Source: Candidatus Chazhemtobacterium aquaticus (GTDB lineage: Bacteria > Patescibacteriota > Microgenomatia > UBA1400 > Chazhemtobacteraceae). From it: a stretch of 64,000 bases of DNA. This document shows, piece after piece, positions 17,218 to 34,581 of this stretch; positions within the stretch are counted from its first letter, which is position 1, and every line of letters begins with the position of its first letter. The position numbers and the translations under genes are program-made. The stretch spans positions 475,643 to 539,642 of the forward strand of contig NZ_CP047901.1 in the NCBI RefSeq assembly GCF_009936135.1. Direction: 5' to 3'. Under the pieces are notes generated by a model. That model was not told the origin of the DNA, ran no database searches, and saw nothing but the letters and a program-made list of their open reading frames with translations.

Positions 17218-18699
17218 CTATCTCACCACCGTCAGCCAACGCCAGAAGAAGGGGATCCGTATCTCCGACAACCAGGTTGATGGTCCCATCGGGCAGGTAA
17301 TACTCTCACAATCAATCGAGAAAGCGGAATAGATGTATTTAGCGTTAAAATACGCTCCCGCTAGGATGACTCCAACAAGCAATACTCTTGATATGTTTTT
17401 AAGCATTTCCCTTGGCCAGATCATGTTGATTAAAGAAGGGGAGACCAGTAGTAGGTAAACAACTCTAAATACGTTCGGATCCGTTGTTGGTCGAAAAGCG
17501 TTATGTAAGAAGTATCTGCCGGACAGTAACAAGCCTACCGCCAAAGCCATATTCACAAACCTTACGTCTTTCAGGAATTTAATTAACCCCAATCCTCCCA
17601 TAATCGCCATTAAAGGAAACATTGGGTAGCGGTACCACGGCAGCATATCCTGCTCGGTTCCCGAGAACACCGCCACCATCAGCCAGTAAATCCAGAACAG
17701 TACGACCCACCCAAGCTCCTTACTCTTCTTGCTCTTAAAGGCAAAAAAGAGAGTGCTAAGCAAAGCAAAAATATACCAGCCGTCAAACATCGGCCAGATA
17801 TCATATCCAGGCGAGCTAAAGATGTAAGCAAGTCCAGTCCAGCCGGCAAATCTTACCCCCTGGATCTCCACGATTGTTTTAAACAATTCCCAGTCAAGCC
17901 AGTAGCCATAAGCTACGAACAAGCCAACTCCAGCCAAGGTTAAAAGCAAGATAATAAGAACATCAGCCCAGCGCTTTTTTCTAGCCGACACAAACATCAT
18001 TAAAGGAGCAATAAAAAAACCAGTTGGCTTCATCAATCCGCCAATCACCGCCATCACTCCCCACACTCCCGCCATCCACTTACTTGGTTTCTTGTCATAT
18101 TTAGGCATCATTGCCAAAGACATCAATGTCATTAAGGCAATTATGTTTTCCGGTACCGACAAACGGGAGCCAAACACCATGATTGGCGACACTCCATAAA
18201 CCAACATTGCCATATATCCAGCCCAAAATCCAAAGAAGTGATAACCCACCCAGAACACCAGTCCAAGCGTTATCAAACTAGCCAACACGCTAGGTATTCT
18301 CGTGTGGGAAGTTGGCAGCACCATCTCCCTATCATCTCCATACAGATGAGCCGCTCCCCCAGCTAGCAGTGAGTAAAGCGGTGGCTCATCCACCCACGGC
18401 TTGTATAGTTTGGCCGGCAAATACACTCCGTTTTTATCTCCTACAATCCCATCAAACACCAGATTTTCATCCGGGTAATCAAGGGTTGACCAAGACACCG
18501 GTTCTCCAGTCTCAATCAAATGTATCCCAGACCAACCATAAAGTAGCTCCTCAGCATGACTCGCACCCGGCACCCGGTCATAATCATGCAGCCTTATTAC
18601 CGCCAAAAACAAGAAAGTTATCACCAAAAGCCAGAACCATCCGCCTTTAAACCACTTAATCATCCCCCTTATTCTCTTTAAATTAAACTCATCAGTCAA
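17218..18699 (-). CDS. ArnT/GT39-related GT-C membrane glycosyltransferase.
   Basis: HDYDRVPGASHAEELLYGWSG (acidic loop motif) and WVDEPPLY. At least 10 TM segments. Confidence 0.55.
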   Translation of the reverse strand: MTDEFNLKRIRGMIKWFKGGWFWLLVITFLFLAVIRLHDYDRVPGASHAEELLYGWSGIHLIETGEPVSWSTLDYPDENLVFDGIVGDKNGVYLPAKLYKPWVDEPPLYSLLAGGAAHLYGDDREMVLPTSHTRIPSVLASLITLGLVFWVGYHFFGFWAGYMAMLVYGVSPIMVFGSRLSVPENIIALMTLMSLAMMPKYDKKPSKWMAGVWGVMAVIGGLMKPTGFFIAPLMMFVSARKKRWADVLIILLLTLAGVGLFVAYGYWLDWELFKTIVEIQGVRFAGWTGLAYIFSSPGYDIWPMFDGWYIFALLSTLFFAFKSKKSKELGWVVLFWIYWLMVAVFSGTEQDMLPWYRYPMFPLMAIMGGLGLIKFLKDVRFVNMALAVGLLLSGRYFLHNAFRPTTDPNVFRVVYLLLVSPSLINMIWPREMLKNISRVLLVGVILAGAYFNAKYIYSAFSIDCESITCPMGPSTWLSEIRIPFFWRWLTVVR

Positions 18700-18750: not shown

Positions 18751-19989
18751 GTGAAGCAAATAACCAAACACCTAACCACCTCTACTGCCAAAAACTCCTC
18801 CCTCTTCTATTTCGGCAGCTTGTTTATCAACTTTGGCCGCTATCTCTTTCACTTACTTCTCCTCCGCTTCCTCTCTCCCTCTTCCTATGGTGAGTTTCTC
18901 TCTTACGTTTCCCTTCTTTATCTTCTTACCATTCCCTCCGGCGTTATTCAGACCCTAGTCAGTCGAGACGTCTCTCTCTTTTTTGGTAAGCAAGACTTTC
19001 GCTCCATCAAGCATTTCTTTTACTTTCTCTCACCGCTAGCCCTGGTTCCTGCTCTCCTCATATCTGTTCTGGTCATTTTCTTTGCCAATCCATTAGCTCA
19101 TCTTCTTACTGCCGACCCTGCGGCCTTCATAGTCTTGAGTCTGATGACCGTCACCTCTATCCTTGGTGCCGTTCTTCGCTCATACCTGCCTGCTCTTCAG
19201 CGCTTCACTACTCAAGTTCTTATTGGCTTCATCGAGCTCCTTATCCTTATCGCCTCGGCTTATATCTTCCTCATTTTTAAATTAGGTGCTCTAAGCGGTG
19301 TTCTGGCCATGTTTCTCTCTGGTGTCATTGCCATCCTTCTCTCTGGCTACCTGCTTCGTTCATATCTTCTACCCAAGCCTAAAAAGGTGACCACTTTCAA
19401 GATCAACCATATCTTTCTCTACTCCCTCATCTTTTCCGCCGGCACCCTCTCCCTCATGTCCACCGATGTTTTACTCGTCCGTTACTTCTTTTCTTCTCAT
19501 GACTCTGGCCTTTACTCAGCTCTTTCCGTCATCGGTCGCATGATTTTCTTTGGTCTTACTCCCATCGGTAGCTTAATCCTCCCCATTGCCGCCAGCCGTT
19601 ACGCCAGCAAACAACCCACCAACTCAGTTTACTTAAAACTCATCATTTCAGCTGGCTTTTTAGGTATTGGCGCTGTTTCTCTCTTCTCTCTCTTCCCTGA
19701 CTTAGTTGTTCGCTTGCTTTCAGGTAGCGAGTATCTAGCCATCACTTCATTAATTCCCTTCATCTCCCTGACCATGTTCTTCTTAAGTCTTAACCAGCTC
19801 ACCCTCTCGTATCTACTCGCCGTTGGTAAAGAAAAAGGTACTTACTTACTCTTCTTTTTCGCCTTACTTCAGCCTTTATTAATCATCTTTATTCATTCCT
19901 CTCTCTATCAGGTCATTACCTTAAACCTGACTCTCCAGCTTTGTCTCTTTATCACCCTCGTTATATACAATACCCTTAAGAAAGTATGA
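18751..19989 (+). CDS. Wzx-like oligosaccharide flippase (polysaccharide biosynthesis protein, MOP superfamily).
   Basis: About 12 TM over 412 aa, with the layout typical of Wzx flippases and the motif QTLVSRDVS. Transcribed divergently from the 17218 gene. Confidence 0.5.
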   Translation: MKQITKHLTTSTAKNSSLFYFGSLFINFGRYLFHLLLLRFLSPSSYGEFLSYVSLLYLLTIPSGVIQTLVSRDVSLFFGKQDFRSIKHFFYFLSPLALVPALLISVLVIFFANPLAHLLTADPAAFIVLSLMTVTSILGAVLRSYLPALQRFTTQVLIGFIELLILIASAYIFLIFKLGALSGVLAMFLSGVIAILLSGYLLRSYLLPKPKKVTTFKINHIFLYSLIFSAGTLSLMSTDVLLVRYFFSSHDSGLYSALSVIGRMIFFGLTPIGSLILPIAASRYASKQPTNSVYLKLIISAGFLGIGAVSLFSLFPDLVVRLLSGSEYLAITSLIPFISLTMFFLSLNQLTLSYLLAVGKEKGTYLLFFFALLQPLLIIFIHSSLYQVITLNLTLQLCLFITLVIYNTLKKV

Positions 19990-20786
19990 AACCCCAACCA
20001 GCCGACCCCAATCTCTTAAGTGTCATTGTCCCTACCTACAAGTGTCCAACTATAGTAAGAGACTTAAAAAGCATCACCCGATATCTTGATCAGCTCAATC
20101 GTCCTTACGAGGTTCTCTGCATTGTTGATGGCAAAGCTCATGCTCGTGACACCACTCTTCAAAAAGCCAGGAAAGCCAGGAGCACCAAGGTCTCCGTCTA
20201 CTCATATCCTCAAAACAGAGGTAAGGGTTATGCCGTCCGTTACGGTATGGCCAGAGCCAAGGGTGGTCTGATTGCCTTCATAGATGCAGGATCCGATCTT
20301 CACGCCTCCGGTATTGGTATGGCCCTAGAGCATCTTAAGTGGTACGAAGCCGATATCATCATCGGTAGCAAACGCCACAAAGCCAGCAAGGTCACCTATC
20401 CCTTTAAGCGCAGAGTCATCAGTACCCTGGCTCAATGGGCCATCCGTCTCTTCTTTGGTGTCCGCGTCTCTGATACCCAAACAGGCTTAAAGCTTTTCCG
20501 TAGGCAAGTTTTAGAACAAGTCCTTCCTCGTCTAGTCATCAAGCGTTTTGCTTTTGATTTAGAGATCCTAATCGTGGCTCACCGTTTAGGCTTCAATCGT
20601 ATCTACGAGTCTCCCATCGAGCTAAACTACAACTTTTCAAGCACTATTAACGGTTCAGCTCTCTATCACTCTGCCGTCGATTTCCTAGCCATCATCTACC
20701 GCACCTATATCCTTCGCTACTACGACGATCGCCATCAGGATATCTGGGAACATGATCCCAAATTAGCTCTCCGCTACCACTCATGA
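19986..20786 (+). CDS. GT2 polyprenyl-phosphate sugar synthase, Dpm1/GtrB-like (dolichyl-/undecaprenyl-phosphate mannosyl- or glucosyltransferase family).
   Basis: LSVIVPTYKC...YEVLCIVDGKAHAR...QNRGKGYAVRYGMARAKGGLIAFIDAGSDL...IIIGSKRH...VSDTQTGLKLFRRQVL. The domain order matches Dpm1/GtrB/ArnC. It is the expected lipid-linked donor synthase for GT-C enzymes. Confidence 0.7.
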   Translation: MKPQPADPNLLSVIVPTYKCPTIVRDLKSITRYLDQLNRPYEVLCIVDGKAHARDTTLQKARKARSTKVSVYSYPQNRGKGYAVRYGMARAKGGLIAFIDAGSDLHASGIGMALEHLKWYEADIIIGSKRHKASKVTYPFKRRVISTLAQWAIRLFFGVRVSDTQTGLKLFRRQVLEQVLPRLVIKRFAFDLEILIVAHRLGFNRIYESPIELNYNFSSTINGSALYHSAVDFLAIIYRTYILRYYDDRHQDIWEHDPKLALRYHS

Positions 20787-21781
20787 GTTCCTCTCGACCT
20801 TTGGTTTCCATCATCATCGTTGATTACAAACGAAACAATCCTTATCTAAAAGAAAGTCTAAAGGCAATCGATCAGCAAACATATACTCATTTCGAGATCA
20901 TTTTAGTCACCGACTATCCCGTTAATTTAACCCATCCCAAGTTAAAGAAAAAATCTTATGGTCATTATGTCGGTCCGGCTCAAAAAAGGGATGCTGGAGC
21001 CAAGCTGGCTCGGGGTAGTATCTTGAGTTTCCTGGATGATGACGCCTATCCTTCTCCTGGTTGGCTTCAGGCTATAGTCGACAACTTCGCTGACCCTAAG
21101 GTGGCTGCCGTTGGCGGACCTGGTGTTACCCCCCCTGATTCATCTTGGGACAAACAGGCTTCTGGTTGGGCCTCTGCCTCACCTTTGGGCTCAGGATCCT
21201 ACACCTATCGTTTCTTGCCTGGCAAGAAGCGACTAGTTGACGACTATCCTTCCATGAATTTGTCTGTCAGAAAATCAGATTTTAATAAGGTTAAGGGTTT
21301 TGACTCTCATTACTATCCAGGTGAGGACACCAAGCTTTGTCTAGATTTAACTCACAAACTAGGCAAAGTGATTGTCTACGAGCCCAAAGCCCTGGTTTAC
21401 CACCATCGGCGCTCTCTCCTCATCCCTCATCTTAAACAGAATGGTAACTACGGATTGCACCGAGGTTTCTTTGCCAGAGTCTTACCCAAGACCTCCCTTA
21501 GACCTCTTTATTTTCTGCCCTCTCTTATGGCCTTAGGTCTGATCTTTCTTCTCTTCTCTCCTTTATATACTCACCCCTTGCTAGCTCTTGTAACTCAAAT
21601 AGGTCACACTCTCCTTGGCTTCTATATTGCTGCCCTTTGCCTTAATGCTCTTTGGATTCTTAACCGTTCTCGCCAGCCTTTGCAAGCTTTCCTCTCCCTC
21701 CCTGTTATATTCCTCACTCATTTCTGGTATGGCCTAAGATTTCTTCAGGGTTTTCTCTTTACCCGCAAGTTGAGTCGCTGA
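20783..21781 (+). CDS. Glycosyltransferase family 2 with C-terminal membrane domain.
   Basis: LVSIIIVDYKRNNPYLKESLKAIDQQTY...FEIILVTDYP...FLDDDA. C-terminal TMs. A C7 tract sits at 21129-21135. Confidence 0.65.
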   Translation: MSSSRPLVSIIIVDYKRNNPYLKESLKAIDQQTYTHFEIILVTDYPVNLTHPKLKKKSYGHYVGPAQKRDAGAKLARGSILSFLDDDAYPSPGWLQAIVDNFADPKVAAVGGPGVTPPDSSWDKQASGWASASPLGSGSYTYRFLPGKKRLVDDYPSMNLSVRKSDFNKVKGFDSHYYPGEDTKLCLDLTHKLGKVIVYEPKALVYHHRRSLLIPHLKQNGNYGLHRGFFARVLPKTSLRPLYFLPSLMALGLIFLLFSPLYTHPLLALVTQIGHTLLGFYIAALCLNALWILNRSRQPLQAFLSLPVIFLTHFWYGLRFLQGFLFTRKLSR

Positions 21782-21782
21782 T

Positions 21783-23516
21783 CTATTCCTTGGTCACCAG
21801 GAAATACGCCACCTCACTATTATCAGGGTAGGGTATACTCTCGATGACTTTTACCCTACTTGGCAGACTTCCTTTCTCAGGCCTAATATCTCCCTTAGCG
21901 TCTTGCTGAGTGATTAGATAAAGAACGCCTTCCTCGAGTGCTTCACCCATCTCATGAGGCATCTGTTTACCCTCAGTTACCTTACTCCAGCTCATCATCT
22001 TCACCTTGTCCAACCCCATACCCTTAATTACCTCAGGTCCAAACTCAACTCCATACTCCTGCACATCTTTCGGTGGGATTTGGGCCCAAAACAGGTAATA
22101 CAGCATGGCCGGATCATTGGAGTTAGTCAGCATTACTTTGTCATAGTCCTTCTCTATCTCTTTAATCTTCAACATCGCCTGTTGGTATCCATAACCATGC
22201 CACCTGGCCGCTTCCAGAGGAAAGTGGACAAAGTATTTGTGAGCCACGTTTATAAACACCAGTAGGTAGACACCAACCAAAGCTATATTGATAAGCCCTC
22301 CCCATTTTTGCTTTGCTAGCATCTTGGTAATCTGCCACCAGCCCAAGCCTACAATGATAAGTAGCGGTCCGGCCATCATGATCAGTCTCGAAGCGTGATT
22401 AGCTCCATCCACAGTCAGATCGGCAGGTAATGGGGAACTTAACAGCCACAGGCCCAGTAGTTGGTTTTCTTTGCGCTTAATGTTTTTGGTTAGCCAAAAC
22501 AGTCCTGCTGCCAAACCGATAATATCAATCCATAACAAAGCCCCAGTTTTACCCATCCCTTGCCGCAGGTTACTATCTCCCGTTGCAAACAGGAAGGTGG
22601 TGGAGATGCTTTTAAGATAGTTGTTCTTCAAAGAAGACAAATACTCCACCCCCTTATTATGAAACAAGTATGAGTACCACACCGGTCGGTTGCCAACCGT
22701 CTCTTGAAGATAATCACCCGAGTCTACCTCCCTACCCCTGATTACATAAATTGGAGCCAATGGATCAGAGAAGATCGATAGCTGTTCAAATCGGGTTTGG
22801 TCGGGTGTCTCCACCGCTGTGTAGTACAGGAAGGGTAAGATGATTGCCGCCGCCACCATCCCTCCGATCACCACTCTCTTTATACCCATCCCCAGTATCT
22901 CTCTCCAGTAAACCAGCCCAACCATTAGAAAAGTTAATGGCACGTAGAAACTCATGATCCGATAGCTATATACCCCCAACGACAACAGGACTACTGAGAG
23001 ATAAAAGGTTTTTACATTTTTACTCTTAAGCCAGTTAAAAAAGGTAAGTAAAAAGCCAAGATACATCATCAAGGCAAACATGGCCTCAAAAGCAATCCGG
23101 CTAAACTGAATCAGCCAGGGATTTAAGGCCATCACTGCTCCAACTAAGAAAGCCGCTCTCTTATCCTTACTCCACTTTAGGGTTAGCAAAGCCGCCAATA
23201 CCACCACCGCCATACCAGCCAAAGCCGTTGTCACTCTTGCCTGCAAGACTCCAGGGCTAAATATCATCGCTGCTGGGATTGATAGATATATCGGTAATGG
23301 AGTCTTAAGATCATGCATCGACCAGGCGTAAAAAGGACTAAAGGTGCCTCGATAGTCTCGGCCTGTCTCCAGCAAACTTCTAGCTTGGTAAGCCAGATCT
23401 ACTTCGTCATAATAAAGACCAGCCGGCACCTCCTCCAGCTGGTAAAATCGAACCAAACCTGCCACCAAGACAACCAGTAACAGCCACCACCATTTCGTTA
23501 ATACCTTCATTCTCAA
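21783..23516 (-). CDS. GT39/PMT/ArnT-like GT-C membrane glycosyltransferase (paralog 4, inverted).
   Basis: LVRFYQLEEVPAGLYYDEVDLAYQARSLLETGRDYRG; C-terminal WHGYGYQQA...YDKVML. Confidence 0.7.
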   Translation of the reverse strand: MRMKVLTKWWWLLLVVLVAGLVRFYQLEEVPAGLYYDEVDLAYQARSLLETGRDYRGTFSPFYAWSMHDLKTPLPIYLSIPAAMIFSPGVLQARVTTALAGMAVVVLAALLTLKWSKDKRAAFLVGAVMALNPWLIQFSRIAFEAMFALMMYLGFLLTFFNWLKSKNVKTFYLSVVLLSLGVYSYRIMSFYVPLTFLMVGLVYWREILGMGIKRVVIGGMVAAAIILPFLYYTAVETPDQTRFEQLSIFSDPLAPIYVIRGREVDSGDYLQETVGNRPVWYSYLFHNKGVEYLSSLKNNYLKSISTTFLFATGDSNLRQGMGKTGALLWIDIIGLAAGLFWLTKNIKRKENQLLGLWLLSSPLPADLTVDGANHASRLIMMAGPLLIIVGLGWWQITKMLAKQKWGGLINIALVGVYLLVFINVAHKYFVHFPLEAARWHGYGYQQAMLKIKEIEKDYDKVMLTNSNDPAMLYYLFWAQIPPKDVQEYGVEFGPEVIKGMGLDKVKMMSWSKVTEGKQMPHEMGEALEEGVLYLITQQDAKGDIRPEKGSLPSRVKVIESIPYPDNSEVAYFLVTKE

Positions 23517-23580: not shown

Positions 23581-25113
23581 TTACTTCTTTCCGTCTACTC
23601 TGTTTGCCTCAGTCAAGTTAAAGATGTGTTGTCTTACTCTTCGTACCGCCCTCCAGCCATAGGTAAACAGGAACTGCCAGTCTTTTTTCTTGAATGTCTT
23701 TAAGTAAGTGATCTGTCTCCACAAGAATTTAGGATGGAAAGCAATGGAGTACATCTCCCTGATGGCTTGGTAATATCGCTCGTGAGGTAGGGGAGTCTTG
23801 ACGATTAGCTTACTCATATCAAAGTCATCATAATCGTCAGTCAGTAGTACTCCTTTGTTAATACACTCCTGGTGGTAAGGGGTGTAATCAAGTGGTGTAC
23901 ACAAAGTTACCTGCAGAGTCCGAGCCAGTCCTGAGAACATCAGGTACTTCACATAATCAATGGTTTCAGAGAGCATTTTCTCAGTCTCCCAGTAATAGCC
24001 CACCATGATAGTCAGGTGAGGGTGTAGTCCAGCCTCCGTCATCCACTTCAAAGCTCTCTCAATGTATTTCTTCTGATATCCTTTGTTTAATCTTTTTAAT
24101 GTCTCATCACTCCCTGATTCAAGGCCGATTAATACAAAGCGGAAGTTAGCCTTAGCCATCAGCTCTATCGTTTCCTTATCAAGATACTCAAAGCGAGTAT
24201 TCAAACCAAAATAACACCCTTTTTTGTGAAGTCCTCGATCAATGATCCCCTGGGCAAACTTTCTGGCATCCTCGCCCCTATACCACACCCCCGAGTCATC
24301 AAAAATCTCTTTTACTCCATACTCGTTAATAAGTCTTTCATACTCATCCAGAGATCTCTCCACCGACATCTTCGAGAAGGTCATCTCCGGCCCGTTGTAT
24401 CTACAAAAAGTACACTTGCCAAACATGCAGTCTCGAATCACGCTGGTGGCATATGTTCCAGGAGTTTGCAGGAAGTTACCGTTCTCGTACGCGTAGTTTT
24501 TCCAATTCACTAAGTCACGGTCAATCAAAGGCGACTTATTTAATGGCTCTACCTGACGGAAGTTGCCCGTATCCCGATACTTACTCCCTCTTACTCTAAT
24601 GGTTAACCCTTCGATCTTGCAGGATCTTCTCCAGTCCTTATTACTCTCCAAGTAGGGGATCAGCCGATGCAACACAAAATCAATATGGTTGCTTTTAAGC
24701 ACAATATCCGTCTTGCTGTGATCAAGCGTCTCCTCAGGCTTTCTCATCGAGTGGTAGCCTGACATGATAAAGATGGTTTTGGGTAGCTTTTTGTTAAGTT
24801 CGTTTATCGTCTTCCAGTAAAACTTCATTACCGGAGTCGTACTCTCAAACACCACTACATCTGGTTGCCATCTGACCAAGTCACTAAACCATTTCTCATA
24901 GGTCTTTAACTGGGCATTGCCATCATCCCACCTCACGTTATATCCCATCTGCTTAAGCCAGGTTGCTGCCTGAGCCTGGACAACTGGTAGTAGGTAAGTC
25001 GGAGTCTTGAAATACTGCACATTGCGGTTCTGAGACACCATTGCCTTCTGCCCCAGCTTGTTAACAATTGGGGGATACGAGATGGCGATTTTTAGTTTCT
25101 TTTTTCTAGCCAT
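23581..25113 (-). CDS. B12-binding-domain radical SAM enzyme (class-B rSAM, probable methyltransferase or other radical tailoring enzyme).
   Basis: N-terminal Rossmann-like B12-binding-type domain (KIAISYPPIVNK...). Cys triad RDCMFGKCTFCRY has unusual Cx4Cx2C spacing. A long C-terminal domain follows. Confidence 0.5.
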   Translation of the reverse strand: MARKKKLKIAISYPPIVNKLGQKAMVSQNRNVQYFKTPTYLLPVVQAQAATWLKQMGYNVRWDDGNAQLKTYEKWFSDLVRWQPDVVVFESTTPVMKFYWKTINELNKKLPKTIFIMSGYHSMRKPEETLDHSKTDIVLKSNHIDFVLHRLIPYLESNKDWRRSCKIEGLTIRVRGSKYRDTGNFRQVEPLNKSPLIDRDLVNWKNYAYENGNFLQTPGTYATSVIRDCMFGKCTFCRYNGPEMTFSKMSVERSLDEYERLINEYGVKEIFDDSGVWYRGEDARKFAQGIIDRGLHKKGCYFGLNTRFEYLDKETIELMAKANFRFVLIGLESGSDETLKRLNKGYQKKYIERALKWMTEAGLHPHLTIMVGYYWETEKMLSETIDYVKYLMFSGLARTLQVTLCTPLDYTPYHQECINKGVLLTDDYDDFDMSKLIVKTPLPHERYYQAIREMYSIAFHPKFLWRQITYLKTFKKKDWQFLFTYGWRAVRRVRQHIFNLTEANRVDGKK

Positions 25114-25117
25114 ATTT

Positions 25118-25804
25118 TTAGAAAAATACCTCCGTTACTATATTACTTCCATTTATCCCAGCCTCACTTAAGATATCATAGACGTCGTTGATCATCTCAC
25201 TGTTACCGCACAAGTAGTATCGGGCTCTCTTGTCGATTTTGTTTGACCTTAAATACTCCGTTACTCTACCGCTAAAGTCTCCACCCTTTTCTCTTGACAC
25301 ACAGGCTACATATCGGTTTTTGGCATAGTCCTTGCGGTCATACTGCTCGTTTGCATATCTGATTCCATGGATGATCTGGTAATCAAGTTTAGGGTATGTC
25401 TTAACAAAGGAATGGAATGGAGCTATTCCTGTTCCAGTAGCAATCAGGATATGTTTTTGATTTAACTTCTTCTCGTCTAAGGTAAATAGGCCATAAGCTC
25501 CATCAAGAGACACCTTATTTCCTGGTTTGAGTTTAGAGAGCCTAGGAGTTACTGCGCCACCCTCGACTGTCTTAATCAAGAACTCTAGCTTGTCATCATT
25601 GGGGGATGAGTAGCTGGAGTACTCGCGGTTAATCGCTTCATTTACCAAACCAATGTTGACACATTGACCGGGGATGAATTTAAAGTTTTTCTTCTCAATC
25701 TGGAGTACAAAAGCTGAATCAGTCAAATGTCTTATACCCAATACCTTATGAGTTCCTTGTTGTCTGCCGTACTCTATTGTTTGCATACACATGCATTCTA
25801 TCAC
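25118..25804 (-). CDS. FAD/NAD(P)H oxidoreductase of the ferredoxin-NADP reductase (FNR) family.
   Basis: RxYS-type FAD-binding motif (NREYSSYSS) and an NAD(P)-binding GTGIAPF motif. 228 aa. Lies 4 nt upstream of the rSAM gene on the same strand. Confidence 0.55.
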   Translation of the reverse strand: MIECMCMQTIEYGRQQGTHKVLGIRHLTDSAFVLQIEKKNFKFIPGQCVNIGLVNEAINREYSSYSSPNDDKLEFLIKTVEGGAVTPRLSKLKPGNKVSLDGAYGLFTLDEKKLNQKHILIATGTGIAPFHSFVKTYPKLDYQIIHGIRYANEQYDRKDYAKNRYVACVSREKGGDFSGRVTEYLRSNKIDKRARYYLCGNSEMINDVYDILSEAGINGSNIVTEVFF

Positions 25805-25848
25805 CCTCGTCTCAATTGGTCTCGTTCTTGTACCATTTTTGAGCTAAA

Positions 25849-26697
25849 ATGATCCTTATGAAATCCGCTCTCCCATTAGTCTCCGTGGTTATTACCACCA
25901 AGAACGAGGAAAAACACATTGTCTCTTGTCTTAAGTCCATCAAGAATCAGGACTATCCTCGGGAGAAAATTGAGATAATCGTTGTTGACAACCACTCTAC
26001 TGATGACACTGTCAAACTAGCCAAGCAATACACCAAGAACATTTTCACCAAAGGTCCAGAGAGGTCAGCTCAGAGAAACTATGGCATGATCACCAAGAGT
26101 CACGGTCAGTACGTCATGTACGTAGACGCTGATATGGAGTTAAGTAAAAAAGTTATATCTTCATGTGTTTCCAAAGTTACTAAAAATCCTGACATCATTG
26201 GTTTGTATATTCGAGAGATAGTTACTGGGGACAGCTACTGGAGTAAGGTCAGGCGTTTTGAACGCAGTTTCTATGAGGGTACGGTTATAGACTGCGTTAG
26301 GTTTATTAAAAAGTCTGCTTTTGTAAAAGTAAAAGGTTTTGATAAACAAATAACCGGCGGTGAAGATTGGGATCTGGACAAAAAAATCCGTCAACTTGGG
26401 AAAGTTGATTTAATAAAACAGCCTATCTATCACAATGAAGCTGAGTTTAACCTAAAGAAGTATCTGGCTAAAAAAAGTTACTATTCGAAAGGTCTTGACA
26501 TATATATTAAAAAGTGGGGAAAAGATGACCCTGATGTTAAGAAACAGTTCAGCCCCATATACAGGTTAGTAGTGGTGTTTTTAGAAAGAGGAAAATGGCA
26601 AAAACTACTACACCAACCAAGACTAGTGTTGGGTATGGCCTTATTAAGGATTGGAGTAGGATTCTCCTATGTTAAGCATCAGGTTATTTCGAAATAA
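25849..26697 (+). CDS. Glycosyltransferase family 2.
   Basis: LVSVVITTKNEEKHIVSCLKSIKNQDYPREKIEIIVVDNHSTDDT...YVDADM. Confidence 0.7.
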   Translation: MILMKSALPLVSVVITTKNEEKHIVSCLKSIKNQDYPREKIEIIVVDNHSTDDTVKLAKQYTKNIFTKGPERSAQRNYGMITKSHGQYVMYVDADMELSKKVISSCVSKVTKNPDIIGLYIREIVTGDSYWSKVRRFERSFYEGTVIDCVRFIKKSAFVKVKGFDKQITGGEDWDLDKKIRQLGKVDLIKQPIYHNEAEFNLKKYLAKKSYYSKGLDIYIKKWGKDDPDVKKQFSPIYRLVVVFLERGKWQKLLHQPRLVLGMALLRIGVGFSYVKHQVISK

Positions 26698-26706
26698 TTT
26701 CCAAAT

Positions 26707-27861
26707 ATGAGAAAACAAACAACGCCGAATATATCTTCACCAAGCAAAACAACAGTTTTGCAGACCGCTCATGTTACAAAGGTTTATGGACCAGTTCAAT
26801 CACTAGCAAAATTCATATCAGAAAAAAAGCGCTTTGATTTTTATCAAATAATTCATCCACTTAACAACAATGCCTCTCCAGAGTCTGTTTTTTTACGAAA
26901 CGGCAAAAAAATTAGTGAAGTTAGGATAAACACATATTCCATATTCCGCTACTTCCTAGATTTTATTATCACCTCATACTGGCTATTTAAACTACCCAAG
27001 AAAATAGATGTCGGATTCGGTATGAATAGCTTTGATACGCTTCCCTTGGTGATTTTTCGCCACAAGATAAACAAAATCGTATTTTTTAACACCGACTTCG
27101 CCAGAAACAGATTTAATAACAAACTAATTAATTCAATATATGTATCCATTGATAAATATTGCGCCCAGAAAGCAGATCTGGTTTGTTGTAATACAAACAG
27201 GACCATCGACGCCAGGATTGATGAAGGAATAAATAAAAACAAACTACTTTTAACGCCGAATGGCGTCGATTTTGACAAAATCGGAAAAATCAAGCCAAAA
27301 ACAAAATACAGTAAATCGCTCATATATGTCGGCTACCTTTCAAAAGAGCATGGACTTCAGACGGTAATAAAAGAATTACCCAAACTAGATCTGAAGCTTA
27401 TCGTTATAGGTAGCGGAGAATACGAGCGGAAACTTAAAAATCTGGTAAAAAAATTAAACCTCGACGACTCAGTCACGTTTTTGGGAAATCTTAAGCATCA
27501 GCAAGTTATCAATATATTGAAAAAATTTGGGGGCTTTGGATTAGCTCCATACAACAACAGTAGTGAATGGACTTACTATTGCGATCCAGTTAAAATTAAA
27601 GAATATCTTGCTTGCTACGTACCAGTTATCATTTCCTCAAGACCTGAAGTTAGTGAAACCATTGCTAGAGAAAAATTAGGATTTAGATATACAAATGAAG
27701 ATGAAATTAAAACAATCCTGGAGAAAGTTAGGAAAATGTCAGAAAAGGAATACAAAGAAACTCAGGAGAATATTAGCAAGTTTCGTAACGAATTTAACTT
27801 AAACACTATTTATCAAAATATTTGGCAAAGAATAAATCAGCCCGTATACACACATGAGTAA
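26707..27861 (+). CDS. Glycosyltransferase family 4-like (GT-B), very AT-rich.
   Basis: C-terminal GT-B half with IYVGYLSKEHGLQ...GFGLAPY...KEYLACYVPVI. GC about 33%. Confidence 0.55.
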   Translation: MRKQTTPNISSPSKTTVLQTAHVTKVYGPVQSLAKFISEKKRFDFYQIIHPLNNNASPESVFLRNGKKISEVRINTYSIFRYFLDFIITSYWLFKLPKKIDVGFGMNSFDTLPLVIFRHKINKIVFFNTDFARNRFNNKLINSIYVSIDKYCAQKADLVCCNTNRTIDARIDEGINKNKLLLTPNGVDFDKIGKIKPKTKYSKSLIYVGYLSKEHGLQTVIKELPKLDLKLIVIGSGEYERKLKNLVKKLNLDDSVTFLGNLKHQQVINILKKFGGFGLAPYNNSSEWTYYCDPVKIKEYLACYVPVIISSRPEVSETIAREKLGFRYTNEDEIKTILEKVRKMSEKEYKETQENISKFRNEFNLNTIYQNIWQRINQPVYTHE

Positions 27862-28525
27862 AACAATAAGAAATTTGCAAGGCGGAGATAACAACTTACC
27901 TGATGATTTGTACAAGCTGACAAGTCACTGGATCAAAGACGGAGATAGCATATTAAACTTAGGTTGTGGAAGCCAGTTCAATTTTGAAAAAATAATTTCA
28001 AAAGAAAAAGATGTTCAAATCACATCAATAGACATTGTCTCGACAAATAAACCATCATATGTCAATCGATTCGTTACTAAAGATGTAGAAAAACCATTTT
28101 CCCTAAACAAAAAGTACGATGTTGTTACTTTTTTTGAACTGATCGAACACATAGATAATACTGATGTTCTCTTAAGGAACTGCTATCGAAACCTTAAAAA
28201 TAATGGTCTACTTATTTTTTCCTTTCCTAATCTCGCCTCTTTGTATTCACGTATAGAATTATTACTCGGTTACCAACCCCATATTCTTGAGATAAGCAAT
28301 GAAAAAGCCAATCTTGGTACCGGTATTTTTGGAAGAATTAATAATCCCGACGACAATCCAATACATCACATAAGAGGGATTACACACAATGCGATGAAAG
28401 ATATGGTGCATTTTCACAAATTTAAAATATTAAGCATGATAGGTTATGAGTATCGGTTAGGGAAAATATTCAAACACTTTCCGTCCCTGGCTCCTGTCAA
28501 TATTTTTATTCTTAAGAAATTATAA
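27854..28525 (+). CDS. Class I SAM-dependent methyltransferase.
   Basis: Motif I ILNLGCGSQ and motif II/III DVVTFFELIEHIDN...NGLLIFSFP. Confidence 0.65.
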   Translation: MSKTIRNLQGGDNNLPDDLYKLTSHWIKDGDSILNLGCGSQFNFEKIISKEKDVQITSIDIVSTNKPSYVNRFVTKDVEKPFSLNKKYDVVTFFELIEHIDNTDVLLRNCYRNLKNNGLLIFSFPNLASLYSRIELLLGYQPHILEISNEKANLGTGIFGRINNPDDNPIHHIRGITHNAMKDMVHFHKFKILSMIGYEYRLGKIFKHFPSLAPVNIFILKKL

Positions 28526-28627: not shown

Positions 28628-31600
28628 ATGGTCCAACCTTTAATAATTTTCTTTTCAATATTTCCTTTTTTCAAATTGTTAAACCTGGATGGTTTGATAG
28701 CCAATGTTGACTTCACCCAATTTTTTTTATTAAACACCAATTTTCTGGATCTATACCCATACGTTTGGAAGGATTACTTGTCTGGAATATTCAACTCAAT
28801 CTATATCATCAATTGGTCGTCTTTGGTCATCATATCTGCGGCATTGAAAGCAATAGGACTAAATACAGAAATGATTAACAGAGTATGGTTGGTTACTCCC
28901 TTCATACTATTCAATCTGTCAGTTTTTTATTTCATCAACAAACATTTTAAAAAATTTGGTTTCAACCGAAGGGATGTTCTTTTAATCGTTATGTTTACAG
29001 CCTACTCGTCTCCCACTGTCAACTTCCTTTCCTTTGGTTGGCAACAAATATATTTTTTACCTGCAGCTGCAACAATAATGTTGCTGGATAGTCTGATCAG
29101 TTTTTCTAAAAGTCTAGAAAAAAAATACCTGTTTGTCGCCGGAATACTATCAATATTCTCTGCACAACTTATGCACTTGTTTATCTTTGCTAACATCTGC
29201 TTCTTCTTGTATTTAGTCATCCTCGACAAACACCCAAAATACACCAAAATTAAGACTCTAGGTCATTGGTCATTTACCGCAATTTTCATCAATCTCTGGT
29301 GGGTTCTTCCGCTCATCGGCAATTTTGTTTTCAGTGAAATCGTCAATTATCGATACGATCCAATCACAGACCTGAACAATATAAAGAACATGGTCTCGTT
29401 CCAAGATGTCATTTTTCTTAACTCGGTCCACGGAACAACAACAGTACAGCAACACACTACCAGCAAAGTTAATCTAATAATCAGGACATCGTATTTTCTG
29501 GCATTTACCATCGGCTATCTCAAAGCAATCAAGACAAAAAAAACAAGAAAGATCAGTCTTACCCTGGGAGTTGCATTATTAGTCGTAATTTTTTTTAGCG
29601 CAGGCGCCCACCAACCCTTTGGATCACTATTTGTATGGGCATTTAAGAACATACCAATGTTTTACATGTTTAGAGATGTATCAAAATTTGGAATCTTTAT
29701 TGTGTTTATATACGGCATATTTATTACCTACCTCATTAAAACCAGAGAGAAACGTAAACGAAATATCGTCCATGTTGGCCTTTTGTTTTTAATTGCCATT
29801 ACATCGTTTCCGATGATCACCGGTAATTTGGGCGGCGATTTTCAAACCCTTGAATTGCCGGATGAATATCTTTCGACAAACATCTTAATTAACAAAGAAG
29901 AATTGGATGCGAAGCTGCTGGCCTTACCAATGCCAAGATGGACCTCTAAGTTTACCTGGATGGATGACGAGGAAAAAGGCTCACAAATATACAACCCGCT
30001 TTATACCATAACTAGCAATCCCATTATCTTTGACGAATTAAATAATACGGGATTAATACCACTACACACTGCAGCTCTTAATTCTATATGTGCGCAACAA
30101 AATAACGAAAATATATTTCTGTCACTTCTAAACATCAAGTACATCATTTTTCAAAAAGATCAACTAAACGAACCTCTTGGTTTTTGTCCTAACGAGCAGA
30201 TGCTCAAAAACGTCGACAAATTATTTACTAAGGTACGAGAGGCAGAATACATAAATCTATATCAGATTGCCGAGGACGAGTATTTACCGCACTTTTACAT
30301 TCCGGTTGAAACGGTTTATTCCACCAGTGAACTAGCATCAATATCAGAAATTCAACGACTTAATGACTACCAAACGCGAACAGCCTTTTTCTTTAAATCA
30401 AACGAAAGCACAGATAATAAGGTTATATCGCCAGACAAAACTGATTCTGTAGTCATAGAGGGGGTATTACTCGAACCCGCCAAGGATGCAATCGATGTCG
30501 AGGAAATCGCCAAAACAGAAATATTCTACCCACATGTAAAAAATAAGCCATCAAGTCCTAGATGGCACGTCGGCTTCATAAAAGAAAGATATGAACTGAG
30601 CAATATAAAAGACGTTAATAGCAAATTAGAAAAGAAACTTTTTTTTGCAAACAAACGCATAAGTGAGATTCAAAAATGGGGCAATATTTCTGTTGAAAAA
30701 TCACGGCCGTTATTCCGCGTATTTGGCCTTAAAGAACTGGAGAACCTACTTGATTTATGGCAATCACAAGTCCAACAATCAATAGATCTAGTCATTCAGG
30801 ATGAAGATAAGGGTAGAAAAGCAACGTTAGCAAAATTAATCAAAGAAAATTACTCTGATAATCTCAAGAAGCTGGCAGAACTTGGCCTCTCAGAATTGTC
30901 CACAGCGTCAATCAAGTCAGATTTTGATAGACAACTAAGTGTGTATCTACCAGAAACCGCAGTCGATCAGAAGTCATATCGACTTAATACCCCCATATCC
31001 GGAGAGTACTCTATATATCTTGAAACATTGAAAGACAAACCATACGCCTCTTTCATAAAAGAGATCTTGATTGATGATACAAAAATCGACATCAATCTTG
31101 TTGACAGCCCTGATCAGGATTACCAACATCTTGGAGAGGAGTATCTTGATTCAGGTGAACATACAATCACCCTCAAATTCAATAATGAAATTAACCTGTT
31201 GCCCGCAGAAAGGCAGCCTATCAATCTTGGCAACAAAAATAGGTTTAATTACCAAACCATTACGGATTGGTTACCAAACCAGTGGTACCAAGTGTCGGGC
31301 AACTACGAACTCAATAATGGCGGAGTCGAGCTTGCGATTGAAGAAGAAGTCTTAAAGAGCGACATCGACAAAGAGAGAGACAATGAGTCCACAAGTCAAA
31401 TAACGAAAAAGGTCGGCATCCCTCCTGGACAAGGCACGTTCAAGTATTACGTCAAATCGGGAAATGATCCAATATCAGGGGGTTTATCTATAGAAGTCGA
31501 CCTCAATGCCTCGGCGACAATAAATGATTTATCAGTAACTCCAATTTACGAACCCAAATTCATAATTAGGAGTCGGATGAACGAAAAGCCTAACAAGTCA

Positions 31601-32113
31601 AAACCGGTCATCGCCTTCCAGAGAATTAACCCAACAAAATATCGAGTTGAAGTAAGAAACGCCACCGAACCCTATCTTCTAGTATTTAGTGAAAACTATA
31701 ACAGAGGATGGAACGTTTTCAAGAAAGACGACGGCAACAATACCTCAATATCATTTTCTAAAGTTGTTGGTGATTTAGTTAGCGTCTTCCTTCACCGTCA
31801 TCCAGTAAAAGAAGTAGTTACAAGTTACTTCGATGGTGATATCAATGAATATAAGCACAGGACCACATTTCTTGAACCAGACACTTTTGAGACATGGGAT
31901 AAAAAACCCATTGCAACAGACCAACATTACCTAGCCAACAGCTATGCCAATTCATGGTACATATCACCTGACATGGTTGGAGGAGACACCGAATATGAGC
32001 TAATCATTGAATTTATCCCCCAAAGACTACTCTACATCGGTATCTTTATATCTGTAATATTCATATTGATTTTCATAATCTACATCGCTTTTCAGAAACT
32101 AATCAAAAAATAA
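28628..32113 (+). CDS. Giant (1161 aa) polytopic membrane protein with a roughly 750-aa extracytoplasmic domain and a C-terminal TM anchor; possibly a GT-C-like polymerase or transferase.
   Basis: About 12 N-terminal TM segments precede a large soluble region; the terminal TM is IGIFISVIFILIFIIYIAF. AT-rich. T8/A8 homopolymer tracts at 28721-28728, 29536-29543, 29589-29596 and 30639-30646. Confidence 0.55.
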   Translation: MVQPLIIFFSIFPFFKLLNLDGLIANVDFTQFFLLNTNFLDLYPYVWKDYLSGIFNSIYIINWSSLVIISAALKAIGLNTEMINRVWLVTPFILFNLSVFYFINKHFKKFGFNRRDVLLIVMFTAYSSPTVNFLSFGWQQIYFLPAAATIMLLDSLISFSKSLEKKYLFVAGILSIFSAQLMHLFIFANICFFLYLVILDKHPKYTKIKTLGHWSFTAIFINLWWVLPLIGNFVFSEIVNYRYDPITDLNNIKNMVSFQDVIFLNSVHGTTTVQQHTTSKVNLIIRTSYFLAFTIGYLKAIKTKKTRKISLTLGVALLVVIFFSAGAHQPFGSLFVWAFKNIPMFYMFRDVSKFGIFIVFIYGIFITYLIKTREKRKRNIVHVGLLFLIAITSFPMITGNLGGDFQTLELPDEYLSTNILINKEELDAKLLALPMPRWTSKFTWMDDEEKGSQIYNPLYTITSNPIIFDELNNTGLIPLHTAALNSICAQQNNENIFLSLLNIKYIIFQKDQLNEPLGFCPNEQMLKNVDKLFTKVREAEYINLYQIAEDEYLPHFYIPVETVYSTSELASISEIQRLNDYQTRTAFFFKSNESTDNKVISPDKTDSVVIEGVLLEPAKDAIDVEEIAKTEIFYPHVKNKPSSPRWHVGFIKERYELSNIKDVNSKLEKKLFFANKRISEIQKWGNISVEKSRPLFRVFGLKELENLLDLWQSQVQQSIDLVIQDEDKGRKATLAKLIKENYSDNLKKLAELGLSELSTASIKSDFDRQLSVYLPETAVDQKSYRLNTPISGEYSIYLETLKDKPYASFIKEILIDDTKIDINLVDSPDQDYQHLGEEYLDSGEHTITLKFNNEINLLPAERQPINLGNKNRFNYQTITDWLPNQWYQVSGNYELNNGGVELAIEEEVLKSDIDKERDNESTSQITKKVGIPPGQGTFKYYVKSGNDPISGGLSIEVDLNASATINDLSVTPIYEPKFIIRSRMNEKPNKSKPVIAFQRINPTKYRVEVRNATEPYLLVFSENYNRGWNVFKKDDGNNTSISFSKVVGDLVSVFLHRHPVKEVVTSYFDGDINEYKHRTTFLEPDTFETWDKKPIATDQHYLANSYANSWYISPDMVGGDTEYELIIEFIPQRLLYIGIFISVIFILIFIIYIAFQKLIKK

Positions 32114-33205: not shown

Positions 33206-34581
33206 AGATAAACAAAGTCATCCTCCCCCTCATCCTGATTCTTTTTGCTCCTACTCTATTTAATTTTTTCTCTGCCGATGACTGGTTTCATCTGCGTTTA
33301 GCACAGATTAGTAGTATTACTGAGTTTCTCAGCTTCTTTTCATTCTCTGCCACTGCTCAGTCTGCTTCTTTCTATCGTCCTCTTTCCACCCAGGTCTTCT
33401 TCTTTATTTTCCATTCTCTCTTTGGTTTTAATACCTTCTTTTACTATCTCTTCGGGCTTCTTCTCTTTGTCCTTATACTCTTCCAGTTAAAAAACCTCGT
33501 TTCATCATTGTTTCCCAAAATTTCTCCAATCACAGCTCTTGTTGTTTATGGTTTCTCAGTTACTAACTTCACCAGGCTTTATTTCCTCTCCGCCTATCAA
33601 GAACTCTTCATGGTTCTTTTCGCCCTGCTGGCTCTTAACGCTCACCTTCGCTCTCAAGGAAAGAAAACCTTATTGTTCTTCATTCTCGCCTTGTTAAGTA
33701 AAGAGACTGCCGTAGTCATACCCGGTCTCATCCTCCTTATAGATCTCTATCAGGGCAAATTAAAGTTAAGCAAATACCTACCCATCTTCTTACTTACTAC
33801 TGTCTATCTATATCTTCGTCTTTTCCATTTTGGCTTGGCAGAAGGGGATACGTACATCTGGGACTTTTCACCCAAAATGGCTCTTAATACCCTAATGTGG
33901 TATACCCTTTGGTCTTTTGGTGCACCTGAGCTTTTAGTTGATTACATAGGTGGGGGACTAAGACCCATTCCTCGTTTCTACACCGACTATCCTTTCTTCT
34001 CTTACTTCATTCTTTTCTTTTTGTTAATTCTTCTTGGGTCTTTCACCTTTCTTATATTCCGCTCTCTAAAGAAAAACCTGCGTCAATATCTTTTTACTGG
34101 CCTGTTCTTTGTTGTCCCTCTCCTTCCCGTTCTCTTTCTTCCTCACCACAAGTTTACCCTTGAGTTAGGTCTGCCTTTAGTTGGTTTTTCTCTTCTTTTT
34201 GCTTTAGTTGCTGATTCAGCTAAGGGTAAATGGGGGACTCTCCTACTTGGCTTGTTTTTAATTCTTAATCTCTCCATGAACTATCTCACCTATACCCGTC
34301 ACTACTCGGTCAATCGCTCTCGCTTATCTCATCGACTCTATGACTATCTCACCACCCAATATCCTCAGTATCCATCCAATCCCCTTTATTTCACCGATCC
34401 GGAAAATGCTGGCCGATTTGAAGATTACGCCAAGCAGCTCTCTCTTGCTACCTCTAGGGCTGATATGTTCCAGGTCATCTACAATGATCCTAATCTGGTT
34501 GTTTACTATGATGGGGTCAACCAGCCGCCAGAAGACCAGCCAGTTATTAAGATCAAAGCTCAAGACTTCTTTACCCGATGA
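33202..34581 (+). CDS. Polytopic membrane protein, GT-C-like (DDWFHL subfamily, related to the 2333-4006 protein).
   Basis: N-terminal FSADDWFHLRLAQ after TM1 and FYRPLS. At least 10 TM. Confidence 0.5.
   Translation: MKINKVILPLILILFAPTLFNFFSADDWFHLRLAQISSITEFLSFFSFSATAQSASFYRPLSTQVFFFIFHSLFGFNTFFYYLFGLLLFVLILFQLKNLVSSLFPKISPITALVVYGFSVTNFTRLYFLSAYQELFMVLFALLALNAHLRSQGKKTLLFFILALLSKETAVVIPGLILLIDLYQGKLKLSKYLPIFLLTTVYLYLRLFHFGLAEGDTYIWDFSPKMALNTLMWYTLWSFGAPELLVDYIGGGLRPIPRFYTDYPFFSYFILFFLLILLGSFTFLIFRSLKKNLRQYLFTGLFFVVPLLPVLFLPHHKFTLELGLPLVGFSLLFALVADSAKGKWGTLLLGLFLILNLSMNYLTYTRHYSVNRSRLSHRLYDYLTTQYPQYPSNPLYFTDPENAGRFEDYAKQLSLATSRADMFQVIYNDPNLVVYYDGVNQPPEDQPVIKIKAQDFFTR

Follow-up and report, generated by a model that had tools for sequence, protein, structure and literature searches.

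Several described systems resemble the gene pair analysed here in part. HpnJ and HpnI, which act in hopanoid cyclitol-ether formation, combine a class-B-type radical SAM enzyme with a GT2 glycosyltransferase, with ring contraction of a lipid-linked sugar as the proposed role of HpnJ (PMC13459092). AprD4 (PDB 6FD2) is the radical SAM 1,2-diol dehydratase of the apramycin pathway and is accompanied by AprD3, a ketoreductase that acts on its product. OxsB, GenK and GenD1 are class-B enzymes of natural-product clusters for which cobalamin dependence is established, and GenK and GenD1 carry the same Cx4Cx2C cluster motif as the enzyme described below (PMC4340712). On the side of electron supply, E. 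coli Fpr takes up electrons from NADPH in the standard radical SAM reducing system and passes them on through flavodoxin, and in eukaryotic TYW1, a flavodoxin-radical SAM fusion, a flavin module in cis makes NAD(P)H a sufficient reductant for the enzyme (PMC8941971).

The locus lies in a 64,000-nucleotide stretch of the Candidatus Chazhemtobacterium aquaticus genome (the window) and centres on two genes on the minus strand.

23581..25113, minus strand: gene for a radical SAM protein (rSAM) of 510 aa with an ATG start, of class-B architecture and from a highly conserved unnamed family
24403..24429, minus strand: cluster-binding motif CMFGKCTFC (C229, C234 and C237; Cx4Cx2C), predicted from the translation
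24574..25092, minus strand: N-terminal Rossmann-like, B12-binding-like domain of rSAM, residues ~8–180
25118..25804, minus strand: gene for an FNR-like flavoprotein (FNR), 228 aa from a GTG, of Fpr type, with an FAD-binding and an NAD(P)H-binding module

Each of the described systems differs from this pair. AprD4 is only ~15 % identical to rSAM, has Cx3Cx3C in place of Cx4Cx2C and serves an antibiotic pathway rather than a surface-glycan locus, and AprD3 is not an FNR-type electron transferase. HpnJ (TIGR03471) gave the best NCBIfam match to rSAM, at 96 bits against a cutoff of 578, but the partner GT2 had no match to HpnI, hopanoid genes were absent from the locus, and the Hpn system has not been described with an FNR partner. 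OxsB, GenK and GenD1 share the cysteine spacing, whereas their sequence relationship to rSAM is distant, their clusters are without a dedicated FNR, and the cobalamin dependence established for them is putative in rSAM. FNR most closely resembles Fpr, through which NADPH feeds the activating chain in E. coli; in contrast to that chain and to TYW1, the FNR here is separate and operon-encoded, there is no flavodoxin, ferredoxin occurs in some loci only, and the pairing is confined to a single enzyme family and is no general housekeeping system. A literature search found no paper describing this cassette.

Both ORFs were recovered as initially annotated, with 4 nt between them (TAA-aaat-ATG). The start of FNR is probably the ATG at 25792 or 25786 rather than the GTG, since homologues are ~216 aa long and their alignment begins at ‘MQTIEYG’. 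The comparison of neighbourhoods of homologous pairs that the initial annotation had proposed was carried out: in all 47 testable orthologue loci, representing many phyla, the FNR gene immediately preceded the rSAM gene on the same strand, and reverse look-ups from FNR homologues found the rSAM gene directly downstream in three of three cases (loci L058, L060 and L061). The stop-to-start gap had a median of ~10 nt and was ≤20 nt in 24 of 36 junctions, some of which overlapped, and the divergence of the two proteins was congruent (Mantel r=0.75, a value that none of 2000 permutations attained). The adjacency is far beyond chance, and FNR and rSAM form an obligately linked, tightly spaced operon. 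A candidate natural fusion of the two (P0146) was dropped as unreliable because both of its ends looked frameshifted. Many taxon labels of MAG contigs are unreliable, as exemplified by a lake MAG labelled ‘Bifidobacterium breve’; the spread of the orthologues over many phyla is anchored by a complete Methylophilaceae chromosome (CP159827), a Polynucleobacter protein record and named Patescibacteria MAGs. Plasmid and phage collections contained no match to the cassette.

Pfam Radical_SAM (PF04055) matched residues 225–387 of rSAM with 66 bits (cutoff 29.5), and RDCMFGKCTFC (residues 227–237) falls inside this match, which places the cysteine triad in the radical SAM core, as had been annotated, at the beginning of its partial TIM barrel. 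The motif RDC[MTI]FGKC[TS]FC, with an invariant C229/C234/C237 triad, was present in all 48 orthologues, and identity across phyla was unusually high (~73 %). Other, unrelated class-B enzymes of the same loci showed a one-residue gap in the alignment, giving Cx3Cx2C. The Cx4Cx2C spacing itself was confirmed; its description as non-canonical has to be softened, with precedents inside class B in OxsB, GenK and GenD1. Structure comparison of a predicted model, which was of moderate quality (pLDDT 72) with the cluster loop unmodelled, matched the barrel fold to those of TsrM, AprD4 and TokK. With its invariant triad and class-B fold, rSAM looks catalytically competent, and it is predicted to be a SAM-cleaving member of the radical SAM superfamily with a Cx4Cx2C spacing variant.

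Membership of a named family was rejected, as every NCBIfam score was far under its cutoff, including, besides HpnJ, those for BchE (TIGR02026; 93 bits, cutoff 481), PhpK (68 bits, cutoff 600), HpnR (51 bits, cutoff 650) and AprD4 (NF033070; 34 bits, cutoff 500). A search of PDB sequences with the single protein gave weak matches only. Profile A1, built from the tight orthologues, was too narrow, but the broader profile A2 reached AprD4 (81 bits), MgmA and OxsB. The nearest relatives of rSAM, namely AprD4, HpnJ, OxsB and GenK/GenD1, act on sugars.

The N-terminal domain of rSAM scored 22.6 bits with Pfam B12-binding (PF02310), under the cutoff of 32.1, and a match to this model at E≤1e-3 was obtained for 16 of 18 family members (best 1.6e-10). 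The N-terminal Rossmann domain of class B, the ‘B12-binding domain containing’ enzymes (SFLD subgroup 5; RadicalSAM.org Megacluster-2-1), is thus present. Of the original assignment as a B12-binding class-B enzyme, the domain architecture stands by way of these family members, but cobalamin use is putative and unproven: AprD4, the nearest solved relative, has the same fold and domain and binds no cobalamin (PMC12931638). No cobalamin riboswitch was found in five sources, a negative that carries no weight either way.

The FNR-like ORF matched both flavoprotein reductase models above cutoff (FAD_binding_6, PF00970, 43.8 bits; NAD_binding_1, PF00175, 36 bits), in agreement with its annotation. 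It possesses the RxYS, GTGxxP and CG motifs and the C-terminal aromatic residue of the FNR family, and R60-E-Y-S63, G124-T-G-x-x-P129, Y-L-C199-G and a C-terminal TEVFF were invariant among the 20 members of its clade. The best PDB match was E. coli flavodoxin reductase (1FDR; E=1e-21, 80.6 bits). Scores for the E. coli Fpr equivalog NF008178 (PRK10926; 82.5 bits, cutoff 390) and for BenC (NF040810; 100.5 bits, cutoff 430) were below cutoff, and only the C-terminal reductase module of BenC (model residues 102–330) aligned; the full-length alignment to the NAD(P)H-flavin reductase model PRK08051 was weak (34 bits). The protein has no Fe-S domain. By sequence it is a distinct clade of ~216 aa of the Fpr type. 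From this homology, and from the ferredoxins of a sister clade and of three orthologue loci, we infer that FNR uses NAD(P)H to reduce another protein, which may be a ferredoxin, a flavodoxin or rSAM.

The sister clade of rSAM is ~38 % identical, has the motif RDCWWNRCTFC and shows the same flippase-GT2-GT2 synteny. Directly upstream of its rSAM gene, in the slot otherwise held by FNR, a small Fer4_13/15 ferredoxin was encoded in five of six loci. Among the orthologue loci, only L007, L060 and L061 carried both FNR and ferredoxin, and tblastn with two locus ferredoxins detected no ferredoxin of this type in the window. The occupation of the FNR slot by a ferredoxin, together with the three loci that have both, supports a role of FNR in electron supply. 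The proposal of a self-contained electron supply for the pair is therefore upheld as regards linkage and ferredoxin swap, from which we infer the electron transfer itself.

The genes around the pair are listed below. Frequencies refer to the 22 full-flank loci, which are those with ≥5 kb of flank on both sides.

18751..19989, plus strand: Wzx-like flippase, 412 aa (PF13440, 23.8 bits), found in nine of the 22 loci
19986..20786, plus strand: polyprenyl-phosphate glycosyltransferase-like GT2, 266 aa, with weak NCBIfam matches to PpgS, AglJ and ArnC-like models
20783..21781, plus strand: GT2 of 332 aa with a C-terminal membrane region (PF00535, 56.6 bits), the third partner
21783..23516, minus strand: GT-C-like polytopic membrane protein, downstream of rSAM after a 64 nt gap, with no Pfam match
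25849..26697, plus strand: second GT2, 282 aa (PF00535, 84 bits), divergent from FNR, a frequent accessory
27854..28525, plus strand: SAM-dependent methyltransferase, 223 aa (PF13489, 58 bits), an occasional accessory (three of the 22 loci)

An orthologue of the 332-aa GT2, whose best NCBIfam match was MftF (108 bits, below cutoff), lay ≤4.5 kb away in 21 of the 22 loci, usually abutting the pair, and its divergence was congruent with that of rSAM (Mantel r=0.74). The 266-aa GT2 adjoined it in L058, L060, L061 and the sister clade, all of which have the order flippase, GT2, GT2 in common, and was detected by BLAST in five of the 22 loci. The 282-aa GT2 (best NCBIfam match TIGR04283, 83 bits, below cutoff) was present in 11 of the 22, was fused to a SAM-methyltransferase domain in L001 and was adjoined by the 223-aa methyltransferase in L058. 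In the window it is part of a block whose DNA matches that of L001 at 94 % identity; this common block is only 3 kb long and consists precisely of rSAM, FNR and GT2. Every locus examined was a glycan locus. Such loci are mosaics in general.

The membrane protein at 21783..23516 had been described as an inverted GT39 paralogue. It is encoded 64 nt from the pair on the same strand, and its link to the pair is weak. The GT39 label could not be retained, as PMT/PMT_2 membership was not supported: there was no Pfam match at E≤0.01, TIGR03663 (Agl23-like) scored 27.6 bits against a cutoff of 126, and the PMT_2-like signal was weak. Identity to the other GT-C-like genes of the window, with which it shared BLAST hits, was 25–28 %. 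No convincing terminator was found between it and rSAM; promoter and terminator scans gave counts at or below shuffled expectation and thus carry no information. The gene was rejected as a conserved partner, being kept in position only in L002 (64 % identity), and is lineage-specific and outside the conserved module.

We consider it probable that FNR and rSAM belong together as a radical enzyme system of two dedicated components, housed in a glycan-modification module that moves horizontally. The Fpr-type flavoprotein would take hydride from NAD(P)H and hand single electrons to rSAM, either directly or, in loci that encode it, via the small ferredoxin. The [4Fe-4S]2+ cluster at Cx4Cx2C would thereby be reduced, as would cob(II)alamin if the N-terminal domain binds B12; the reduced cluster would then cleave SAM to a 5'-deoxyadenosyl radical, which would abstract a hydrogen atom from a sugar that may be nucleotide-activated or already polyprenyl-phosphate-linked. 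The partner GT2 would then incorporate the modified sugar into a surface glycan, and flipping over the membrane would follow; in Chazhemtobacterium the downstream GT-C protein perhaps transfers the sugar. A non-methylating rearrangement, dehydration or ring contraction, as with AprD4, HpnJ and OxsB, has in our estimation slightly less than an even chance of being the reaction, cobalamin-dependent C-methylation, as with GenK and GenD1, is a tentative candidate, and something else would be a minor possibility. A reductase of its own would free the cassette from the redox proteins of its host, and we propose that this independence is why it could work in minimal-genome Patescibacteria and in Proteobacteria alike.

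Enzymes of the FNR type depend as a rule on ferredoxin or flavodoxin as mediator, and flavin potentials are high relative to typical radical SAM clusters. Direct transfer from FNR to rSAM would be unusual, because a mediator is normally needed and a ferredoxin was found in only three orthologue loci and not in the window. It is doubtful that FNR reduces the cluster, and cobalamin if present, without a mediator and that rSAM also carries out a modification new to surface-glycan sugars, e.g. contraction of the ring, or C-branching, in a sugar linked to polyprenyl phosphate, which Patescibacteria and many other phyla would have in common through transfer of the self-sufficient cassette. If true, the pair would be the first radical SAM system of two proteins in nature to need nothing but NAD(P)H as its source of electrons.

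FNR may instead, or in addition, be a catalytic partner in a net reductive transformation, in which a hydroxyl is lost from the substrate radical (1,2-diol dehydration of the AprD4 type) and electrons from FNR are spent at each turnover in quenching a product radical or intermediate, to yield a deoxysugar. There are parallels in E3 (AscD), which feeds E1 in 3,6-dideoxyhexose synthesis, and in AprD3, which follows AprD4. However, AprD3 is a ketoreductase working on a closed-shell product and not an FNR, E3 has a [2Fe-2S] domain that the FNR protein is without, the NCBIfam scores of rSAM for HpnJ (96 bits) and BchE (93 bits) far exceed the one for AprD4 (34 bits), and the AprD4 motif, CPYPCRFYC, is Cx3Cx3C, unlike that of rSAM. 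The plain ferredoxin that the sister clade has instead would be equally expected under generic electron delivery, and we regard the catalytic role as unlikely.

Less plausible still is that the protein is a Fre-type flavin reductase and that rSAM, as a genuinely B12-dependent methyltransferase, has its cob(III)/cob(II)alamin and possibly also its cluster reduced non-specifically by the free reduced flavin so produced. Dihydroflavins generated by Fre do reduce cobalamin, and the length of ~216 aa without an Fe-S or ferredoxin domain is like that of Fre, as is the full-length, though weak, PRK08051 alignment (34 bits). The B12-binding match in 16 of 18 family members and the motif common to the B12-dependent sugar C-methyltransferases GenK and GenD1 (PMC4340712) are likewise consistent with it. 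Nevertheless, the scores are better for an FNR of Fpr type, which binds FAD tightly (82.5 bits for PRK10926 and 80.6 bits for 1FDR), the RxYS motif and C-terminal aromatic residue are conserved, and the strict pairing and congruent evolution speak for a protein partner that is specific and against a mediator that diffuses; cobalamin use is itself putative, with no riboswitch in the five sources, and the Fre reading is improbable. The last alternative, a housekeeping or unrelated oxidoreductase lying beside rSAM by chance, can appeal only to the mosaic nature of glycan loci and the 3 kb extent of the block common to the window and L001, and is effectively refuted by the comparative data, i.e. 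linkage in 47/47 and 3/3 loci, short or overlapping junctions, congruent divergence and a common block that is exactly rSAM, FNR and GT2.

The preferred reading, a dedicated two-component system, bears on radical SAM enzymes in general, whose cellular electron donors are mostly unknown and for which FNR is a natural candidate partner. In vitro, such enzymes are driven with dithionite or with Fpr and flavodoxin taken from E. coli; the co-evolving FNR, joined in some loci by a cognate ferredoxin, would be a native reducing system for reconstitution, which can be tested. A cassette that brings its own reductase would also offer a route by which oxygen-sensitive, cofactor-heavy chemistry is ported between very different hosts. 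The rSAM family is uncharacterized and exceptionally conserved, and it occurs in surface-glycan loci that include those of Patescibacteria, about whose envelope chemistry almost nothing is known. The family probably makes a modified sugar that has not been described before.

Two closely spaced ORFs on the minus strand, encoding a radical SAM enzyme (rSAM) with the motif RDCMFGKCTFC and an FNR-like flavoprotein (FNR), had been proposed in the initial annotation, and ORF analysis, Pfam and translation confirmed them:

25118..25804, minus strand, FNR-like ORF, 228 aa when counted from GTG
23581..25113, minus strand, rSAM ORF, 510 aa, ATG start

The intergenic gap is 4 nt (TAA-aaat-ATG). The true start of the FNR is probably the ATG at 25792 or 25786, because its homologues are ~216 aa long and align from 'MQTIEYG'.

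More than 1200 rSAM homologues were found; the best 120 of them were 72–99 % identical and had no functional name. With each species represented by one genome, a locus scan yielded 57 loci. These span Patescibacteria lineages, Alpha-, Beta- and Gammaproteobacteria (among them a complete Methylophilaceae chromosome), Planctomycetes, Verrucomicrobia, Nitrospinae, Elusimicrobia, Lentisphaerae, SAR324 and other groups; certain MAG taxon labels are clearly unreliable. Upstream DNA was present for 47 loci whose orthologue reached 64 % identity or more, and in every one of them an FNR-like gene lay immediately upstream of the rSAM gene, on the same strand; in the five exceptions the rSAM gene lay at a contig edge. 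Three FNR homologues from further long contigs served for a reverse look-up, and each had an rSAM gene directly downstream (3/3). The stop-to-start distance had a median of ~10 nt, with 24 of 36 measurable gaps being ≤20 nt or overlapping. Pairwise divergences of the FNR and the rSAM were strongly correlated (n=42, Mantel r=0.75, a value reached in 0 of 2000 permutations), the rSAM evolving about half as fast (mean distance 0.28 vs 0.50–0.52). The two genes are therefore linked. An apparent read-through protein, P0146 (...KSFF-RNNV-MKIAISYPP...), was considered as a natural FNR–rSAM fusion, but both ends look frameshifted and it is probably an assembly artefact.

The FNR matched FAD_binding_6 and NAD_binding_1, both above the Pfam cutoff, and its closest solved structure was the E. 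coli flavodoxin reductase Fpr (1FDR, E=1e-21). The protein lacks an Fe-S domain, the BenC model aligning over its reductase module only. Invariant features of the FNR clade were R60-E-Y-S63, G124-T-G-x-x-P129, Y-L-C199-G and a C-terminal TEVFF; C48 (QCVN) and C168 (ACVS) were also invariant in the clade alignment (A3), besides the 'CG' cysteine C199. The proposal of a dedicated reductase beside the rSAM was largely right.

The rSAM matched Pfam Radical_SAM (66 bits, residues 225–387) and, weakly, B12-binding (22.6 bits, cutoff 32.1, residues 50–137). It came near the cutoff of none of the curated NCBIfam models, the highest scores being those for HpnJ (96, cutoff 578) and BchE (93, cutoff 481), followed by PhpK (68), HpnR (51) and AprD4 (34). 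The architecture is that of class B, as annotated, whilst the B12 reading had been overstated: AprD4, of like architecture, reportedly does not bind cobalamin (PMC12931638), so that architecture alone does not decide cobalamin use by the rSAM.

The motif core (24403–24429, minus strand) translated to CMFGKCTFC, or Cx4Cx2C, and all 48 orthologues possessed RDC[MTI]FGKC[TS]FC. The corresponding motif was RDCWWNRCTFC in the sister clade (~38 % identity), and RPCIWGKCSFC of the queuine lyase 6P78 aligned with the motif of the window's rSAM. Unrelated class-B enzymes of the same loci showed a one-residue gap in the alignment, giving the canonical Cx3Cx2C; in more distant relatives the first spacing was x3, x4, x7 or x9, and the cysteines were wholly lost in some. 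The motif is genuine, and both unusual and invariant, yet not new, with class-B precedents in OxsB (PMC9204698) and in GenK, GenD1 and Sis14 (PMC4340712); its novelty had been overstated.

The full-length distant relatives P0145, P0152, P0157 and P0162 (26–30 % identity) lacked all three cluster cysteines (e.g. RDSDWGQSSLGS) and look like cluster-less pseudo-rSAM paralogues. Inteins of ~400 aa with LAGLIDADG homing-endonuclease motifs were located exactly at cluster-ligand cysteines, at two different sites: ahead of Cys3 in P0126 (972 aa; RDCWWGKCTF-[CFPPET...AVKN]-CSW) and ahead of Cys1 in P0123 (911 aa; RD-[CFPAGT...AVHN]-CWW...GGCTFCSW), both sister-clade homologues. To judge by length, P0128 and P0135 would likewise contain inteins.

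Clustering of all neighbour genes showed that the pair alone was universal. Among the 22 loci with at least 5 kb of DNA on each side, an orthologue of the 332-aa GT2 with a C-terminal membrane region (20783..21781), a conserved partner missed by the initial annotation, was present within 4.5 kb in 21, usually abutting the pair, and its divergence was congruent with that of the rSAM (r=0.74). A second GT2 (282 aa; 25849..26697) was found in 11 of these loci, a Wzx-like flippase in nine and a polyprenyl-phosphate-type GT2 in five. The recurring order was flippase, GT2 (~270 aa) and GT2 (~332 aa), convergent or co-directional with FNR–rSAM; it is kept in the window, with a GT-C-like gene (21783..23516) between the halves. 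The link to this gene as a 'GT39 paralog' had been overstated, as it had no Pfam match and only a weak Agl23-like match, and L002 was the one locus in which it was conserved at this place.

The window and its closest relative, L001, were 94 % identical in DNA only over the rSAM, FNR and 282-aa GT2 genes (23597–26602). Because identity stops on both sides of this segment, the pattern fits cassette-level movement or recombination; no match to the cassette was found in plasmid or phage records. In L001 (2128..3663, minus strand) the 282-aa GT2 and a SAM-methyltransferase domain form a single 511-aa protein, the window counterparts being separate genes (25849..26697 and 27854..28525). The Methylophilaceae cassette lies, with a UDP-sugar dehydrogenase and SDR enzymes at its flanks, within an ordinary Wzx-type glycan operon on one strand. 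Apart from the cassette, the window is occupied by a large surface-glycan locus, several of whose products are GT-C proteins of PMT_2 type. At least seven GT-C/PMT_2-like polytopic membrane proteins (2333..4006, 11242..12915, 13603..15285, 17218..18699, 21783..23516, 34578..36203 and 46640..48076), several 25–28 % identical to each other, are encoded in the 64 kb; so many lipid-linked-sugar transferases close together are unusual. Small membrane proteins (153–180 aa) with D-x-D-H, possibly YdjM-like membrane hydrolases, recur beside the rSAM gene in certain loci of either clade (L051 2283..3283, L052 6720..7720 and L009 1722..2189).

GC skew of the plus strand in 2-kb windows was strongly negative (-0.16 to -0.38), except for three windows at 26–32 kb. 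This held although most genes are on the plus strand, and the value was ~-0.17 in the minus-strand block at 22–26 kb; the skew looks like mainly a very strong strand effect, not a coding-strand effect. Beside the cassette, G+C fell from ~0.45 to ~0.35 over 26001–32000 (GT4, methyltransferase and 1161-aa genes), where skew was weaker, consistent with a separately acquired segment. The 1161-aa protein (28628..32113) had no Pfam match.

The sister clade shared the flippase-GT2-GT2 synteny, with a small Fer4_13/15-type ferredoxin directly upstream of the rSAM gene, in the slot of the FNR, in five of six loci (one degraded). Both proteins were encoded in the orthologue loci L007, L060 and L061. Since either of two classic electron-transfer proteins fills the same slot, its job would be electron delivery to the rSAM. 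In the chain that normally activates rSAM enzymes, Fpr forms the NADPH end (PMC8941971). Electrons would therefore pass from NAD(P)H through the FNR, and ferredoxin where present, to the [4Fe-4S] cluster, and also to cobalamin if bound. SAM would then be cleaved and H abstracted from a sugar, which the partner GT2 would incorporate. The closest rSAM relatives by sequence (HpnJ, BchE and AprD4) are non-methylating and act on sugars or lipid-linked sugars, and the motif is common to ring-contracting OxsB and the sugar C-methylases GenK and GenD1; rearrangement or dehydration is slightly favoured over methylation.

A lesser possibility is that the reaction is net reductive, for instance a deoxygenation, and draws on FNR electrons at every turnover as in AprD4/AprD3 and E1/E3; most of the data agree with this reading, which does not exclude the chain proposed here. 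That the FNR is a Fre-like free-flavin reductase serving cobalamin is improbable given its Fpr-like scores and strict co-evolution with the rSAM. Fortuitous adjacency is scarcely credible, being refuted by the comparative data.

Each cassette component belongs to a known superfamily and nothing is categorically new among them; no description of the cassette was found in the literature searched. What is new is the obligate pairing, in many phyla, of a class-B-type rSAM with an Fpr-type reductase. Among rSAM enzymes, operation on NAD(P)H alone has been shown only for the eukaryotic, flavodoxin-fused TYW1 (PMC8941971). The physiological reductants of rSAM enzymes are an acknowledged open problem (PMC9204691), on which the FNR–rSAM pairing bears directly.
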